This document shows, piece after piece, positions 3,371 to 27,544 of a stretch of 64,000 bases of DNA. How positions within the stretch are numbered: position 1 is the stretch's first letter; each line of letters starts with the position of its first letter. The DNA is from Polyangiales bacterium. Lineage in GTDB: Bacteria > Myxococcota_A > Polyangia > Polyangiales > CBDCBC01. The notes beneath the pieces are model-generated. The model had not been told where the DNA came from. It saw only the letters and a program-made list of their open reading frames with translations, and ran no database searches. The stretch is taken from NCBI GenBank assembly GCA_044224525.1, contig JBGAKI010000002.1, forward strand, positions 20,846 to 84,845, given 5' to 3'. A program made the translations under genes and the position numbers.

Positions 3371-4522
3371 ATGTTGTCTGAGGCGTCGGTCTATGTGCAT
3401 TTTCCCTGGTGCCTAAGAAAATGCCCCTATTGCGACTTTGTTTCGTATCGCAGCGAGGGTGGCGCCATCCCCCAACGCGCTTATACCGATGCGGTGCTGC
3501 GCGAGCTTGAGCTGCGTGCGCCAAGCGTGGCTGAGCGCAAGCTGGTATCGATTTTTTTTGGCGGCGGCACGCCTTCATTATGGGAACCTTCAGAACTTAA
3601 GCGCGTGATCGACGCGATTTATGCCACGTTCTCGAATCACGCTCGTGTTGAAGTGACGGTCGAATGCAATCCGTCGTCGCTAGACGAATTGCGCGCCGCG
3701 GCGTTGGTTGAGGCAGGGGTGAATCGATTGTCGGTGGGAGTGCAGTCGCTGCGCGAGCACCATCTGCAATATCTTGGGCGCTCGCACACACCCGAGCGTG
3801 CGCTTGAAAGTTTGGGTTATGCGATAAAGCACGCTGCGCAAGCGAGCGCTGATTTTATTTTTGGGTTACCCGAGCAAAAAGTTGATGCGTGGTGCGATGA
3901 TCTGACGCGCGTGATCGACACTGGCGTGAACCATGTGTCGGCCTACGCGCTCACGATCGAAGCCAAGACCCAGTTTGGTGAACGTTATCGCAAAGGCAAG
4001 TTGCCTATGGCCACCGACGATCTTTATGCCGATTTGTATCAGGCCACCGAACAGACCATGGCCGCGGCCGGGTTTGAGCACTACGAAGTGAGCAACTATG
4101 CGCGTGGTCAGCATGTGGCGCTGCATAACATGCATTACTGGCAAAGTGGCGACTACCTTGCGCTTGGCACCGGTGCTGTGGGCGCGCTCACGACGGCACC
4201 GGGGCAGGCGCGGCGCTACCGCAATATGAGCGATCCGGAAAAATATATGATGGCCACTCAAGTAGAGGCGTATGAGGGCGAGACAGAGCTGCTTGGGTCG
4301 TATGAGCTTATCTGTGAGGGGTTGATGCTCGGGCTGCGAACGGCGCAGGGCATGCACGTGCCCACGGTTGAACGCCGTGCGGGTGCAAGCGCAGAGGCTG
4401 ATCGAACGCCGGTTCTTCAGCGCATGTTCGCGCAGGGTGATATTTTACGCGCAGACACATACTGGCGTGTTCCTCAGGACAAATGGCTGCATCTTGATGG
4501 AATCGTTGCTTCGCTGTTTTGA
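3371..4522 (+). CDS. hemW: Radical SAM heme chaperone HemW / oxygen-independent coproporphyrinogen oxidase-like
   Basis: N-terminal VYVHFPWCLRKCPYCDF radical-SAM CxxxCxxC motif. Length and downstream motifs are typical of HemN-like proteins. Confidence 0.85.
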   Translation: MLSEASVYVHFPWCLRKCPYCDFVSYRSEGGAIPQRAYTDAVLRELELRAPSVAERKLVSIFFGGGTPSLWEPSELKRVIDAIYATFSNHARVEVTVECNPSSLDELRAAALVEAGVNRLSVGVQSLREHHLQYLGRSHTPERALESLGYAIKHAAQASADFIFGLPEQKVDAWCDDLTRVIDTGVNHVSAYALTIEAKTQFGERYRKGKLPMATDDLYADLYQATEQTMAAAGFEHYEVSNYARGQHVALHNMHYWQSGDYLALGTGAVGALTTAPGQARRYRNMSDPEKYMMATQVEAYEGETELLGSYELICEGLMLGLRTAQGMHVPTVERRAGASAEADRTPVLQRMFAQGDILRADTYWRVPQDKWLHLDGIVASLF

Positions 4523-21781: not shown

Positions 21782-23203
21782 TTAACCGTTGGCCCCAAGG
21801 ACTCGCAGATGTTTTCGCGCGTTTGTGTTGCCGGCGGCCGACTGCAGTCGACCGACAAGGTCGTAATCGGCGGATTTGGTGATATGCACTTTGGCGAAGG
21901 TGCCAGGTTCAATGGTTATTTGTTTACGCGCAGGCAAGGTAATGATCACTTTGCCGTCGATTTCGGGCGCTTGGCCGGCGTGACGGCCCTCAAGCAAGAA
22001 CTCGCTCTCTTCGCTTTCGCCTTCAATCAACACGTCGATGTCTTTGCCCACCCATGTTTTGTTTTTGGTGCGACTAATCGTTTGCTGCGTTTGCATCAGC
22101 GAGTGATAGCGCGCTTCGATGACATCGGGCGCGACAAGGTCAGTCATGGCGCCAGCGTGGGTGCCTTCTTCATGTGAATAGGCGAATACTGCTAAGCGAT
22201 CAAACTTCGCCCACTCAATGAATTTTTGCAGTTCGGAAAAATCGGCTTCTGTTTCGCCGGGGTGGCCCACTATGAACGCTGAACGAAAGGTCATGTTCGG
22301 GATTTTTTCGCGCATGCGCTCAACCAGCGTGTAAAGCCGCTCGCCGCCGTGACCGCGACGCATGCGGGTGAGCATGTTGTCACTTGCGTGTTGTAAGGGC
22401 ATGTCGATATAGGGCACCACCTTGGGATGCGACGCGAAGAGCTCGAAAAGTTCGTCGCTGAGTTTTTCTGGGTAAAGATAAAACACGCGCAACCAACGCA
22501 GGTGGTCAAGCTCACCCAGACGTTTGATGAGCTCGACGAGTTGACCACGTTCCTTGAGATCGCGGCCATATGAAACAGTGTCTTGGCTAATCAGATTGAG
22601 TTCGACGACGCCTTGTTCGGTGAGACGTTTGGCTTCGGCGTATAGATCGTCGATGCTGCGTGAACGCTGCTTGCCGCGAAACGATGGGATGGCGCAAAAC
22701 GAACACGCGCGTGAACAACCTTCGGCGATTTTTAGGTAAGCGCTGTAACTGTATTGTGATAGGCGCCGCGGATCGAGCGCGCTGAGCGTGTGTTCGGCGG
22801 GATTGCCGATCAGCATGCGCGGCGGAATGCTTTTTAGATCGCTCGCCTTAAGGATGTCTTTAAGTTTGAGCATGTCGCCGGTACCCAAGAAGTGGTCGAC
22901 TTCGGGCATGCTCTGAGCAAGTTCGGCGCCGTAACGTTGCGAGAGGCAGCCGGTCACCACCAGTTTTTGGCAGTTGCCATCTTGTTTGAGACGCGCCATC
23001 TCAAGAATGGTGTCGATCGACTCTTGTTTAGCAGCATCGATGAATCCACACGTATTGATTACGATAACTTGTGCAGCGTTTGGGTCTGATACATGCTGAT
23101 ACTGCTGATCGTCACTGACACCGAGCATGACCTCGGTATCGACGCGGTTTTTAGGGCAACCGAGCGAAACGAAATGAATGGTCGGTTGAGGAGGGTTGGC
23201 CAT
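21782..23203 (-). CDS. rimO: Ribosomal protein S12 methylthiotransferase
   Basis: MANPPQPTIHFVSLGCPKNRVDTE is collinear with the E. coli RimO N-terminus. Radical SAM CSRACSFCAIP and a C-terminal TRAM-like region. Confidence 0.9.
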   Translation of the reverse strand: MANPPQPTIHFVSLGCPKNRVDTEVMLGVSDDQQYQHVSDPNAAQVIVINTCGFIDAAKQESIDTILEMARLKQDGNCQKLVVTGCLSQRYGAELAQSMPEVDHFLGTGDMLKLKDILKASDLKSIPPRMLIGNPAEHTLSALDPRRLSQYSYSAYLKIAEGCSRACSFCAIPSFRGKQRSRSIDDLYAEAKRLTEQGVVELNLISQDTVSYGRDLKERGQLVELIKRLGELDHLRWLRVFYLYPEKLSDELFELFASHPKVVPYIDMPLQHASDNMLTRMRRGHGGERLYTLVERMREKIPNMTFRSAFIVGHPGETEADFSELQKFIEWAKFDRLAVFAYSHEEGTHAGAMTDLVAPDVIEARYHSLMQTQQTISRTKNKTWVGKDIDVLIEGESEESEFLLEGRHAGQAPEIDGKVIITLPARKQITIEPGTFAKVHITKSADYDLVGRLQSAAGNTNARKHLRVLGANG

Positions 23204-23315
23204 GAAAAGGTTGCAAATTATGAACTTTTTTAGGGTTTTGGTCAACCGAGCGGCAAAAAGCGGGCTTTTTGCACAGAAGTGTTGTCAGTTAGGAGCGAAA
23301 CCTTTATTGTGAAGT

Positions 23316-23579
23316 GAGGTGCTGGCGGATGGGTCTAGGCCCCGGAATGTTCTGAAACTTTCGCAAGAAAGATCGCGCTGGTAGGACTGTGAGGCATCTG
23401 CCTTTGTTATCGAACGCTTTCAGCTGCAACAAGAAAGCGCCGGCTTGTCCGGGGGAGGGTTAGAAATGAACTGCACTAAACGTAACCTCTTGCTGAGGGT
23501 TGTCATCAGTTAGTTCTCTGCCCTCGCAAGAGGATTTCGGAGGGGCGGCTTTCACAAGAAGGCCGCCCCTTTTTCTTTT
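23316..23579 (+). ncRNA. Candidate unclassified structured small RNA, or a micro-ORF transcript
   Basis: Plus-strand promoter-like TTGTCA-17nt-TATTGT (23281-23309), a GCAA-loop hairpin, a 13-bp bulged hairpin (23486-23533) and a strong intrinsic terminator. There is no plus-strand gene on either side. The 5' end is a guess. Confidence 0.3.
23541..23579 (+). terminator. Rho-independent terminator (plus-strand polarity)
   Basis: aggggcggc/gccgcccct stem, extendable to about 13 bp, followed by TTTTTCTTTT. On the minus strand no U-tract follows the hairpin. Confidence 0.75.
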
Positions 23580-23584
23580 AGGCG

Positions 23585-24829
23585 CTAGGGAAGTTGAAAG
23601 AATAGGCCGTTTTGTGCGGCTTGTGGATTCGTAATGGAGGACAAAAAGGTTTGCGTGGCGGTGCCGTCGTAACTTGTGTCGTCGTCTGTGCCGGATTCAA
23701 GAACGAGCGAGTCGGCAGGTGTTTGTGTAAAACTTCCGCCGTCGGTGCGTGCGAAGCGTGACAAACACGCAATGGTGGATTGTGCGCGCGCTTCGCTTTG
23801 TTCTTGTTTGATTTGGTTAAACACATTAACAACATAGTCGCGAAAGAAGCGTGACTTACCAATGTATTTGGTGCGCATCGACCGGCACTTATTGAGTTGG
23901 GTTGCGTCCAACACATTGGTCTCACTTAGCGCTGCGAGCGGAAAGCAGTTGGCATTACTGACCGCTCCATAAATGGTCATTTGTGTTCTGCCCTGATCGA
24001 TTTGATAGAGTGGACCGCCTGAGTCGCCTGGGTTGGTTTGGGGGCCTAGCTTTGCATCACAATCACGATCTGGATAAAAAGCGATTTGTGAGATGTCGTC
24101 AAAGGTCTTGTAATCGTAGATAGTTATTAGCGGATCGGTGAACATGAATGAGGTACCGCTGGCCATGTGCGTGCGTGTGGCAGCAAAGGCTTTGTCTAGA
24201 CACGCCGTGTCATTGTCGTCGACACACTTGCCGTAGTTGGTGCTGATGCGATAGGCCGCTTCGGAGTCGATGTTGGCGCCGCCGGCATCGAGTGTTTTGA
24301 TATCCGCGGGCGGATCGGGTGAGAACGCAACTGGCAAAAGATTGAGTCGCGCAGCCGCCGAGAATTGCGCCTGCCTGAAGGGCGTGGGCCAATGCAATGC
24401 GGCTAAATCGTGTGGAAAACTTAAGCCGGCGGTGGCGCTTGCTTTGGAATGATATACCCAACCGATATTCGAGCGCTTCTCGCACAAAGGTTCAAGAAAA
24501 CCTTGGTTAAAAATCACACAGATGTATTGTGTCTCAGCGGCCGTAATAAAGCTAGACACCACATGCGCGGCGGTAAGAATGACGTCGCCCGCTGTGCCCA
24601 CCACAACACCGGTGCCGCGTTTTGAAGTTGCAGATTCTTTCAAGCGTTTGAGCGTGGTCGAGTCCCAGTGCAAGATCGGTTCACTGTGACCCACGAGCAC
24701 CACAACATTTGGATCGCCCGGACCGAAGTTAACCGTTTCGGTTGATGCATCATCACTCGAGCTGCAGGCGACTAATAATAACCCAAGCGCACAACTCAGA
24801 TAAGTGAGTCGTTGGCGACCAGCGTTCAT
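23585..24829 (-). CDS. Trypsin-like (S1 family) serine protease lipoprotein
   Basis: Lipobox LLVAC, His motif VILTAAHVV, Asp HDLAAL, Ser motif NPGDSGGPLY. Confidence 0.8.
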   Translation of the reverse strand: MNAGRQRLTYLSCALGLLLVACSSSDDASTETVNFGPGDPNVVVLVGHSEPILHWDSTTLKRLKESATSKRGTGVVVGTAGDVILTAAHVVSSFITAAETQYICVIFNQGFLEPLCEKRSNIGWVYHSKASATAGLSFPHDLAALHWPTPFRQAQFSAAARLNLLPVAFSPDPPADIKTLDAGGANIDSEAAYRISTNYGKCVDDNDTACLDKAFAATRTHMASGTSFMFTDPLITIYDYKTFDDISQIAFYPDRDCDAKLGPQTNPGDSGGPLYQIDQGRTQMTIYGAVSNANCFPLAALSETNVLDATQLNKCRSMRTKYIGKSRFFRDYVVNVFNQIKQEQSEARAQSTIACLSRFARTDGGSFTQTPADSLVLESGTDDDTSYDGTATQTFLSSITNPQAAQNGLFFQLP

Positions 24830-25773
24830 GAGCCTTTAACTTTTGCGAGCAGCGCATCGATGATTTCAGCGGCAAGGTCGCGCTTTAAGATGGGGCCCAT
24901 CGCTTGGATGCCGGTCGGGCTCGTCACGTTAACCTCGATCAGTTTTCCGGCGAGAATATCGAGGCCAACAAACCACAAACCGTCGGCTTTAAAGCGCGGC
25001 GCAAGCTTGGCGACAATGTCGCGATCGTGTGTGGTCAGTGTGTCGGCTTCGGCGCGGGCGCCGATGGCGAGGTTACTGCGAATGTCATCGGCGCGCGGAA
25101 TGCGGCGCATCGAGCCTAGGATTTGGCCGTCGAGTACGAGCACACGTTTGTCGCCTTCGCTTTGAATTTCGGGCATGAACGCCTGCACCATGACTAAACG
25201 TTTGCCGAGCCTTGTTTGCAGCTCGACGATACCGCGATAGTTGGTGTCGCTTGCGCGCAGCACCATCACACCTTCGCCGCCTTTGCCGTCGAGCGGTTTG
25301 ATCACTGCTTGGCCGCCCTGTGCATCGACAAAGCTGCGGATCTCGGTGTGGTCGCTGGTGACGATGGTCGGCGGCATCAGATCGGCAAAAAAATGCGTGT
25401 AGAGTTTTTCGTTGGCCTCGCGCAAACCACGAGGGTCGTTGAGCACAAGGGTTTGTGAGCGCGCAAGTTCGAGAATTTGTGTAGCCCACAAATAGGCGTC
25501 GTCGAAGGGAGGCTCTTTACGAATCAGAACAGCAGCATAATCGTCAAGGTAAACTCGGCTCACCTCACCAAGCTGTAAGGGTGGGTCACTTGCGCGCGAT
25601 GCTTGTGCTGGGCGCGCGTAGGCAAATGCGCGCGCTTGTTCGAGCCCCAAATCGCTGACCAAACAATGTTCGATTTGAAATCCGCGTTTTTGTAACTCGA
25701 GCATCCAGGCAAACGAAGTATCGCTTGCCGGGCGAACGGTGTGCACGGGATCCATGACAAAGAGAAAGCGCAT
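24826..25773 (-). CDS. gshB: Glutathione synthetase (ATP-grasp)
   Basis: MRFLFVMDPVHTVRPASDTSFAWMLELQKRGF is collinear with the E. coli GshB N-terminus; ATP-grasp C-part. Confidence 0.9.
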   Translation of the reverse strand: MRFLFVMDPVHTVRPASDTSFAWMLELQKRGFQIEHCLVSDLGLEQARAFAYARPAQASRASDPPLQLGEVSRVYLDDYAAVLIRKEPPFDDAYLWATQILELARSQTLVLNDPRGLREANEKLYTHFFADLMPPTIVTSDHTEIRSFVDAQGGQAVIKPLDGKGGEGVMVLRASDTNYRGIVELQTRLGKRLVMVQAFMPEIQSEGDKRVLVLDGQILGSMRRIPRADDIRSNLAIGARAEADTLTTHDRDIVAKLAPRFKADGLWFVGLDILAGKLIEVNVTSPTGIQAMGPILKRDLAAEIIDALLAKVKGS

Positions 25774-25852
25774 TGCGGCTAAGTTTGGCGCATTGGGCTT
25801 GCCTAATCAAGCCCGGCTCGTATGGTTAGCGCGTTTATTGAACGAGGACGTC

Positions 25853-27544
25853 ATGCGAATTATCTCATTGATAACAACCCTTTCGGTTCTTCTTTTTGTT
25901 ACAAGCGCTCAAGGCGAACAAAAAACGCATTTCAGCGAATATGCGGTGGTTGCGGGCGAGGCGCAGGCTGCACAAGCGGGCGCGCAGATTATTGAGCAGG
26001 GCGGTAGTGCGGCCGATGCGGCGGCGGCGGCGATGTTAACGCTCGGATTGACGAGCCCGATGTCGAGTGGTTTTGCCGGTGGCGGATGGGGTTTGTATTA
26101 CGACGCCAAAACGGCCCAAACCGTGTTTCTTGATTTTCGCGAACGCGCTCCAAAAATGGCATCACCGAACATGTTCGTAAAGCAAAAAAATCCGGCAGAG
26201 GCATCGCGTATTGGCGGTCTCGCAGTGGCTGTGCCCGGAGAACCCAAAGGGATAGAGCAGCTGGTTAAACGTTTTGGTAAACTCGATCTTGAACATGTGA
26301 CCGCGCCCGCTCGCCGCTTGGCTGAGAATGGCTTTTATTTGTCGGGCTATTTTGTGCAGATGGCAGGCAAGTTTAAAAGCCAGATTTACAAGGACCCGTA
26401 TGCGTCGACGTGGTTCAACAATGTCGGGCGCATTGAAGCTGGGACCGTGCAGCGCAATCCGGCCTTAGCAGAAGTGCTTGCTTGTTTTGCACGCGAAGGT
26501 TCGAGTTGTTTTTATACCGGTAAAGTGGCTAAGGCGATGGTCGCTGAGATCAAAAAGCGCGGAGGCGTCTTGTCGCTAGAGGATCTGAAAGACTATCAAG
26601 TGTTTGAGCGACAAACGCTGAGCGCCGAACATTTTGGTTATGAGTTTGTGACAGCGCCTGCGCCCAGTGCAGGCGGATACATCATGCTTGCAAGCCTTGG
26701 GCTTTTAGAAGAGTGGCTTGGTAAGCGCAAACCAAGCGAGAACGCCGAGTGGTACCATATGCTTGCAGAATCATGGAAGGGGCCTTTTATCGATCGCACT
26801 CAATACATCACCGACCCTGTCGACACGACCGTGTTGATGAGCGAGCTGCTTAACCCGGCCCGCATTGCCAAGCGCGCCAAGGTTTTCAATCGGCAAACTG
26901 CGCAAGAGCCGGAAAAATATGACGTTCCACTGGGTGAGCGCGCGCGCAAGAACTATCCCGCTGAAGACCATGGCACGTCACACGTGTGCGTGGTTGATAA
27001 AGAAGGCAACGTGGCGTCGTTCACCACGAGCGTGAACTTGCCGTTTGGCGCTGGATTTAGCGTACATGGCATGTTTATGAACGACACGATGGACGACTTT
27101 AACCAACCTGGAGGTGCGAGCAACGCTTTTGGTTTACACAGCGGTGAGCTCAACCAACCGAAACCAGGACGCACTCCAGTGTCGAGTACCACGCCCACGA
27201 TTGTTTTCAAGAACGGTAAGCCGGTCATGTGTGTGGGCGGCAGCGGCGGATCGCGAATTGTAACTGCTGTCGAGCAGGCGGCGCTTAGGGTGCTGCTGAT
27301 GAAGCGATCTGTGCTCGATGCTGTTACCCAACCGCGTATTCATCATCAGGCGATGCCCAACGAAATTTCGTATGAAGACATGGATGCCAAAACGATGATT
27401 GCGCTCACCAAAATGAAGCACAAGACAAGCGGTGACGCGCCTTTTTCTGGCGCAGTGCAGATGATTCATATCGGTGAGGGTAAAACGCGTTCGCTCGAAG
27501 CAGCGAGTGATCCACGCAAACAAGGGTACGCGGCGGGGCGTTAA
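25853..27544 (+). CDS. ggt: Gamma-glutamyltranspeptidase
   Basis: Signal peptide MRIISLITTLSVLLFVTSAQG (the ORF track starts earlier, at 25739). Autoprocessing/nucleophile site GTSHVCVVDKEGN. GGSGGSRI motif. Confidence 0.92.
   Translation: MRIISLITTLSVLLFVTSAQGEQKTHFSEYAVVAGEAQAAQAGAQIIEQGGSAADAAAAAMLTLGLTSPMSSGFAGGGWGLYYDAKTAQTVFLDFRERAPKMASPNMFVKQKNPAEASRIGGLAVAVPGEPKGIEQLVKRFGKLDLEHVTAPARRLAENGFYLSGYFVQMAGKFKSQIYKDPYASTWFNNVGRIEAGTVQRNPALAEVLACFAREGSSCFYTGKVAKAMVAEIKKRGGVLSLEDLKDYQVFERQTLSAEHFGYEFVTAPAPSAGGYIMLASLGLLEEWLGKRKPSENAEWYHMLAESWKGPFIDRTQYITDPVDTTVLMSELLNPARIAKRAKVFNRQTAQEPEKYDVPLGERARKNYPAEDHGTSHVCVVDKEGNVASFTTSVNLPFGAGFSVHGMFMNDTMDDFNQPGGASNAFGLHSGELNQPKPGRTPVSSTTPTIVFKNGKPVMCVGGSGGSRIVTAVEQAALRVLLMKRSVLDAVTQPRIHHQAMPNEISYEDMDAKTMIALTKMKHKTSGDAPFSGAVQMIHIGEGKTRSLEAASDPRKQGYAAGR

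Follow-up and report, generated by a model that had tools for sequence, protein, structure and literature searches.

The locus analyzed here raises the question of what, if anything, is encoded on the plus strand of an intergenic region flanked by two minus-strand genes of a Polyangiales bacterium. The analyzed stretch of DNA, referred to as the window, comprises 64,000 nucleotides; in it, rimO (21782–23203; Pfam domains UPF0004, Radical_SAM and TRAM) and a trypsin-like protease gene (23585–24829; Pfam domain Trypsin_2) are both located on the minus strand, and a reading made without database searches (the sequence-only reading) had placed between them an orphan plus-strand transcription unit for a structured small RNA or a 15-codon micro-ORF. 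The intergenic gap is as described there, and its size needs correction, since the 339 bp given previously presume a rimO start at TTG 23245, whereas the deposited RimO product (473 aa) starts at ATG 23203, which yields 381 bp (23204–23584). No plus-strand gene follows in the window, the convergent protease gene being found instead, and automated annotation calls no gene over the RNA element in any locus, leaving genes such as this one invisible.

Polyangiales are characterized by very large genomes and a rich secondary metabolism. To our knowledge, Myxococcota have so far yielded very few regulatory RNAs, and none were found described for Polyangiales in the literature searched. The comparative analysis reported below leads us to interpret the plus-strand interval 23317–23579 as a stand-alone gene for a ~260-nt RNA, with transcription predicted. 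The element belongs to an RNA family of Polyangiales that matches no Rfam 15 family. As judged by sequence comparison, the structured nature of this family is well supported, and its members enclose an apparently translated micro-ORF.

Predicted Transcription Unit

All features pointed out in the sequence-only reading were located within 1 nt of their reported positions. For the promoter-like hexamers (TTGTCA-17-TATTGT), this places the −35-like TTGTCA at 23282–23287 (+), 17 nt upstream of the −10-like TATTGT at 23305–23310 (+), which in turn lies 9 nt upstream of helix P1 of the fold described below. Taken alone this is a weak signal (9/12 consensus matches, with 2 such sites in 1.1 kb vs. 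0.6 expected). A −10-like element, mostly of the extended TGTTAnnnT type, is found 9–14 nt upstream of P1 in most homologues, and ~30 nt upstream of it in the homologue from a second Sandaracinaceae MAG (L002). If the −10 hexamer is taken to set the start and the T-run of the terminator to set the end, the predicted transcript covers 23317–23579 (+, ~262 nt); family members measure 264–484 nt between the same landmarks.

The 3′ end is formed by a candidate intrinsic terminator (23539–23579, +), in which the previously noted 13-bp GC-rich stem (23539–23572) is followed by UUUUUCUUUU and the T-run TTTTTCTTTT ends at 23579. A terminator scan is by itself not above chance (1 found vs. 1.7 expected from shuffles). 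Across the family, a terminator-like stem with a U-run closes every member whose 3′ end is present on the contig, and a UUUU(U)CUU tail is shared by the window, L201 and L002. Read on the minus strand, this stem is followed by CUCCGAAAUCC, which is not a U-tract.

Family Members and Genomic Context

A search with the RimO protein yielded one contig (Logan contig L202) identical to the window and, beyond it, best identities of 61–64%; with the next RimO relative only 64% identical, there are no syntenic close relatives. An exact look-up of the protease sequence likewise gave no record. A single-sequence nhmmer search with the intergenic region against 80 rimO loci returned one match (L003), which is not syntenic, being located in a Sandaracinaceae MAG 3.8 kb from rimO in the opposite orientation (full locus, L201). 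The shared core motif, GCGCCGGCNNGTCCGGNGGAGG, occurs once in the window, and a metagenome scan with the 19-base core motif returned 120 loci, most of them chance matches in GC-rich coding DNA, with six loci (five distinct sequences) representing true homologues. These are longer (~410–480 nt) and located downstream of a small lipoprotein gene. Use of the lipoprotein as bait provided eight more distinct members, one lipoprotein homologue being named Labilithrix sp., and a covariance-model search added L002. Neither a scan of viral contigs with the core motif nor a chimeric six-frame “protein” query for spuriously called ORFs over the RNA gave any matches. Overall, 15 further distinct homologues were collected (16 members including the window), originating from two Sandaracinaceae MAGs, several Labilithrix-like MAGs and, for the rest, metagenome contigs; this sample of 16 sequences comes from a single bacterial order, as Labilithrix and Sandaracinaceae both belong to Polyangiales.

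The genes surrounding the element differ substantially between members: a convergent protease gene in the window, a GNAT gene in L201, HhH-GPD and VWA genes in L222, and a transposase, DUF2330 or Peptidase_Mx1-like gene in others. In seven loci (L155, L173, L203, L204, L205, L207 and L217) a tRNA-Gly(CCC) gene is found after the terminator of the element, in most of them with an apparent promoter of its own (TTGACA-N17-TACGAA), and the same seven loci share a conserved upstream cluster, asparaginase_2 – hypothetical – lipoprotein. In three Sandaracinaceae-like genomes (window, L002/L222 and L003/L201) the element lies less than 4 kb from rimO, with different orientations and intervening genes; this proximity could be a remnant of an ancestral neighborhood or a coincidence. 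This variation of the neighbors excludes that the element is the leader of rimO, the 3′ UTR of the protease gene or an attenuator of the classical kind. The orphan nature of the unit proposed previously thus stands, and the comparison of loci indicates that the unit moves as a whole between genomic contexts.

Two repeats were observed near individual members. In L107, a 172-nt direct repeat (1783–1954 and 2261–2432, 89% identity) flanks the element on a short metagenome contig; it stems either from tandem duplication of the unit or from an artefact of assembly. L204 carries ~8 tandem copies of the hexamer GAGGTC in the stretch that separates the lipoprotein gene from the element (~3640–3700).

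Conserved Fold of the 5′ Domain

The 5′ ~140 nt of the element fold into a domain in which helix P1 closes a multi-way junction with hairpins P1a, P1b and probably P1c, followed by P2, P3 and P4. The 5′ strand of P1 (23320–23330, +) pairs with 23372–23383 (G23375 bulged), with double-sided changes at 10 of 11 pairs across the family, and is reproduced by the covariance-model alignment. Inside the junction, P1a (GGGU-CUAG-GCCC, 23331–23342) has double changes at four of six pairs and P1b (CUUUC-GCAA-GAAAG, 23358–23371) at six of seven, the latter appearing as CCC-GCAA-GGG in L201 and as GCGGAGG/CCUCCGC in Labilithrix-like members. Between them, a tentative mini-hairpin P1c (CGG-AAUGUU-CUG, 23343–23354), read by eye, holds the conserved motif GGAAUG.UC.G; most members have CGG/CCG as its 3-bp stem, which is replaced by CGG/CUG in the window and by CAC/GUG in L002, around the loop AAUGNU. 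P2 (GAGGC-AUCU-GCCUU, 23391–23404) has double changes at five of seven pairs. P3 (CGCUUUC/GAAAGCG with an 11-nt loop, 23415–23439) is preceded by the conserved GAA of junction J3 and takes the form CGUCCGCG/CGCGGGCG or CACUCG/CGAGUG in other members, with an extra hairpin, P3a, inserted in it in the long-form members. All of these features, as well as P4, are located on the plus strand.

P4 (CCGG-CUUGU-CCGG, 23440–23452) differs from the other helices in that its four-pair stem is invariant among all 16 sequences; as it never varies, covariation speaks neither for nor against its pairing, and the invariance suggests sequence-specific recognition or an alternative pairing. Minor variations were seen around it: the loop has only 4 nt in L205 and L217 (CCGG-CACG-CCGG), GUG replaces GCG ahead of the hairpin in L205, and the region reads CCGGC-UGCG-GCCGG in L210.

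Out of seven helices tested, six are supported by compensatory changes, P4 being the invariant one. When 15 sequences were aligned by hand, 99.5% of 584 cells were paired and 35/49 pairs were changed on both sides, and in a covariance-model alignment of 16 sequences 94.1% are paired and 31/42 pairs are double-changed. Fitting to the structure, whether manually or through the model, was part of making each alignment, which inflates these counts somewhat; the contrast with controls is nevertheless large, as none of 500 shuffles reached the values observed for the hand alignment and sliding the 3′ partners by 1–3 columns left 41–57% of cells paired with at most 10 double-changed pairs. In the window, all 36 modelled pairs are standard. 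A covariance model (R1) built from 14 non-window sequences, when applied to both strands of the 64-kb window, gave a single match at 23322–23458 (+) with 48.8 bits and an E-value of 7.5e-11, spanning model positions 1–156 of 156 and reproducing the hand-assigned helices. The fold-energy z-scores of the window are nearly equal for the two strands (−2.09 on plus, −1.96 on minus). Thus the single-sequence signals are weak, and the case rises above chance because the homologues, the covariation and the leave-one-out covariance model all single out this interval and this strand.

The assignment to the plus strand is further based on frequent G-U pairs (e.g., UG in six sequences at columns 162/250 and GU in eight at columns 217/234), which would turn into A-C mismatches if the minus strand were transcribed; the plus strand also carries the Shine-Dalgarno (SD) sequence, the AUG and the terminator in readable sense. 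Among the features of the element are those expected of a riboswitch-type RNA, namely a complex covarying fold with an invariant GGA.U..UCCG, the GAA before P3, and P4. We consider it highly probable that the plus strand of the element genuinely encodes a conserved, structured RNA.

The structured-RNA half of the sequence-only reading is borne out by the homologue and covariation analysis, which places a conserved covarying fold in the 5′ half, and some of its details had to be revised. The ctttc-GCAA-gaaag hairpin it had pointed out exists and is now P1b; the hairpins, which it had treated as isolated elements, turned out to be parts of one multi-helix domain. A long-range pairing had also been suggested between segments at about 23338 and 23449. 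Both segments exist (GCCCCGGA at 23339–23346 and UCCGGGG at 23448–23454), and the consensus fold pairs them locally instead, within P1a/P1c and P4. The long-range pairing is thus not supported: CCGG being an invariant palindrome, it could be drawn for any member, and covariation has no say on it, both segments being nearly invariant.

Micro-ORF and 3′ Hairpin

Immediately 3′ of P4 is the SD sequence GGGAGGG (23453–23459, +; GGAGG 23454–23458, GGAGGG 23454–23459), which in the window forms part of the core GCGCCGGCTTGTCCGGGGGAGG (23437–23458) and is followed by an ORF of 15 codons plus stop, MNCTKRNLLLRVVIS, running from ATG 23466 to TAG 23513 (+). The micro-ORF had thus been described correctly, including the position of GGAGGG 6 nt before the ATG (a 7-nt spacer if counted from GGAGG). 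The arrangement CCGG-N-GGAGG, an A-rich spacer of 7–10 nt with variable sequence, a start codon (ATG, or GTG in L002) and a short ORF is present in 16/16 members, the ORF length being 13–15 codons in 15 of them and 22 in L002. On this comparative evidence, translation initiation at the micro-ORF start is probably functional.

The peptide is weakly conserved, with a loose consensus M-[QHN]-x-[TR]-x-G-S-x-x-x-G-x-T-[PS], from which the peptides of the window (MNCTKRNLLLRVVIS), L201 (MHSTNGLLPEVSCF) and L002 (MNQTSTSDFNHARTLNREVTVL) diverge after ~4 residues. Some signs of coding are observed: the codons for Thr4, His, Ser and Pro vary synonymously, the stops are variable (TAA, TAG, TGA), and the window ORF has an in-frame 3-nt insertion relative to L201. 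At codons 2–7, pairwise comparison gives 35 synonymous vs. 167 non-synonymous differences, and the nucleotide differences by codon position (108/99/133) show little third-position excess. As the conserved Gly-Ser and Gly codons form both strands of a covarying hairpin, their conservation could be explained by RNA constraints. The main output is thus probably something other than the sequence of the peptide.

The 3′ end of the ORF is held in the 13-bp bulged hairpin seen previously at 23486–23533, here named P5 (CCUCUUGC(U)GAGGG with CCCUCGCAAGAGG, +), in which 23486–23499 pair with 23521–23533 and the stop codon lies in the loop. L201 has an equivalent 12-bp hairpin with CCUCUU/AGAGG kept and a covarying inner part; in the window, L201 and L002 alike, the ORF enters a strong hairpin and its stop codon is in the loop. 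In the minimum free energy structure of the window, the SD sequence (GGGAGGG) pairs with CCCUC (23521–23525) in place of P5, possibly a modelled translation-off state; this pairing is not conserved in L201. By-eye inspection across members found no positionally conserved anti-SD. The predicted unpaired fraction of the SD sequence ranges across members from 0.18 to 0.59 (transcript mean, 0.31–0.37), with no consistent open or closed state of the SD sequence and start codon.

Comparison With Known RNA Families

Searches of the window, L155 and ten other loci against Rfam 15 at gathering and E-value thresholds yielded only tRNA and terminator-driven noise, in agreement with the earlier impression that no known family is matched. 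The best sub-threshold match, L20_leader (RF00558), scored 25.7 bits vs. a gathering threshold of 58.7, its alignment being carried by the terminator stem and U-run, and was rejected. Resemblances to T-box, ykkC and CsrA sites (UGGU, GGUCCG and GGA motifs) were likewise dropped, with no model support. The Downstream-peptide family (RF01704) gave no match at E ≤ 10 for the window interval and L155, and none at E ≤ 5 for six other loci. Literature searches on myxobacterial and Polyangiales RNA motifs gave nothing relevant except Pxr and general uORF/sORF categories.

Several described systems share part of this architecture. Dual-function sRNAs with very small ORFs include Spot 42/SpfP, SgrS/SgrT and RNAIII/hld, and RNAs of the Spot 42, SgrS and RNAIII type act by base-pairing via known seed regions, mostly in an Hfq-dependent manner. 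The Polyangiales element resembles them in that it is predicted to be transcribed independently as a small RNA, from a promoter to a terminator of its own, and to combine a structured RNA with a short ORF; it differs in that its structured part is upstream of the ORF and leader-like. Type I toxin mRNAs encode a hydrophobic membrane peptide of ~19–60 aa and are accompanied by an antisense or overlapping antitoxin RNA; this candidate was rejected, as most peptides here have 13–15 aa (22 in L002) and are mostly hydrophilic (e.g., MHERSGSHPGEQT). The sRNA Pxr is known from Myxococcus and related bacteria and is not known to contain an ORF. The likeness in this case is that of a myxobacteria-specific small RNA with multiple stem-loops (PMC5568312), and the difference is that the element matched no Rfam family of any kind. 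The uORF attenuators, such as the ilvB uORF motif (PMC11109978), also have an SD sequence and a short ORF that is overlapped or followed by a hairpin plus intrinsic terminator, and their stop codon is located in or beside a hairpin; the Polyangiales element differs from them in lacking a consistent downstream gene or a conserved run of regulatory codons and in having a large conserved domain upstream of its ORF.

The closest published analogue in architecture is Yfr6/Downstream-peptide (the glutamine-II riboswitch candidate, RF01704). In Yfr6, a ~250-nt RNA of cyanobacteria, the Downstream-peptide motif constitutes the 5′ UTR of a short ORF (PMC2864571). The shared features are an RNA of ~250 nt, first taken as non-coding, and a short ORF behind a structured 5′ UTR. 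On the other hand, there is no similarity to the Polyangiales element at the level of sequence or covariance model, the hosts are different (cyanobacteria vs. Polyangiales), the Polyangiales fold is larger, with a multi-way junction and three more helices, and the ORFs have 13–22 codons vs. 17–100 in Yfr6/Downstream-peptide. The element thus resembles a Yfr6-type unit and is not a member of that family.

Proposed Function and Alternative Explanations

By analogy with this system, the element may be a small regulatory mRNA of the Yfr6/Downstream-peptide type, an assignment that we put forward as plausible and tentative. Its central feature, gating of micro-ORF translation by the 5′ domain, is itself a possibility that we rate between doubtful and roughly even. 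In such a mechanism, the folded 5′ domain would sense a metabolite, ion or protein, or act as a folding switch, and would thereby control the access of ribosomes to the adjoining SD sequence and AUG; translation of the micro-ORF through P5 would then remodel or stabilize the 3′ part of the RNA, so that the output would be the act of translation or the state of the RNA, not a conserved peptide sequence. A more specific version, in which the 13–15-codon ORF of a stand-alone transcript is controlled by a 5′ domain serving as aptamer for a riboswitch class not yet described, or as some other RNA that senses a ligand or protein, appears rather improbable; if true, it would mean that no downstream gene is needed for the cell to read a metabolic signal, the readout being either how ribosomes occupy a tiny ORF or the micro-peptide that is released.

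Two alternatives concern the relation between the fold and the ORF. The element might be a purely non-coding sRNA, trans-acting or protein-binding, with a functional fold, an incidental ORF and the GGAGG-AUG stretch serving as a binding or seed region (e.g., a purine-rich decoy). The fold is indeed far better conserved than the peptide, the P4 and GGAGG block is nucleotide-invariant as would be expected of an RNA or protein recognition site, stop-free runs of 13–15 codons are common by chance, and the conserved residues coincide with hairpin strands. We nonetheless regard this possibility as unlikely in view of the start codon being kept at SD-optimal spacing in all 16 members while the spacer sequence varies freely, the in-frame indels, the synonymous variation of Thr, His, Ser and Pro codons, and the narrow range of ORF length (13–15 codons in 15/16). 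The same coding signs could be taken further, to an ordinary micro-protein gene with the 13–15-aa peptide as the effector and the 5′ domain as a stabilizing or regulatory UTR, and a canonical SD sequence and ATG, together with a peptide motif recognizable across the Labilithrix-like and L208/L210/L211 groups with synonymous changes, would be in line with it. Against this reading stand the peptides of the window, L201 and L002, which have little in common with the others past positions 1–4 despite the retained fold, the dominance of non-synonymous differences, and a covarying 140-nt leader far more elaborate than a 45-nt ORF requires; we consider it quite improbable.

The remaining two explanations would deny the element its independence or its existence. 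As a cis-regulator of a neighboring gene, it would be a leader-peptide attenuator or riboswitch for a downstream gene, the 5′ leader of rimO, or the 3′ UTR and terminator of the minus-strand protease gene. The succession of ORF, hairpin and terminator is attenuator-like, three consecutive Leu codons of the window ORF fall in the hairpin strand, rimO is near in three genomes, and the terminator stem lies 6 nt from the protease stop codon; however, the downstream genes vary, with none following on the plus strand in the window and tRNA-Gly having its own promoter, the Leu-Leu-Leu run is confined to the window (Leu-Leu in L201, absent elsewhere), the orientation relative to rimO differs between genomes, and the G-U pairs, SD sequence and U-run all mark the plus strand. 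Such a role is accordingly very unlikely. That the features are the chance content of an ordinary intergenic spacer would agree with the 9/12 promoter, the terminator scan and z-scores of about −2 on both strands, and is effectively refuted by 15 homologues sharing the fold with compensatory changes and by the E-value of the leave-one-out model.

For the small regulatory mRNA considered here as the leading interpretation, the questions raised are whether a complex leader controls a 15-codon ORF, what it would sense, and whether the peptide or the RNA is the output. The family is directly testable, as a covariance model is now at hand and its 16 examples extend to genera that can be cultivated (Labilithrix, and relatives of Sandaracinus).

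Other Features of the Locus

Several additional observations were made around the element. A promoter-like sequence on the minus strand (TTGACC-17-CATAAT, 23245–23217) ends ~11 nt ahead of the rimO ATG (23205–23203), with no SD sequence, implying a very short rimO leader and possibly leaderless translation; the longer TTG-start rimO ORF would start within this promoter-like sequence. Between it and the divergent promoter of the small RNA is a perfect palindromic hairpin, GCAAAAAG-CGGG-CTTTTTGC (23255–23274), which might serve both sides as an operator or insulate them from each other. On the other side of the element, gshB (24826–25773, minus) overlaps the start of the trypsin-like protease gene by 4 nt, so that the two probably form an operon, and a gamma-glutamyltranspeptidase gene diverges at 25739; together, the protease, gshB and gamma-glutamyltranspeptidase genes (23585–27544) look like a glutathione-related cluster.
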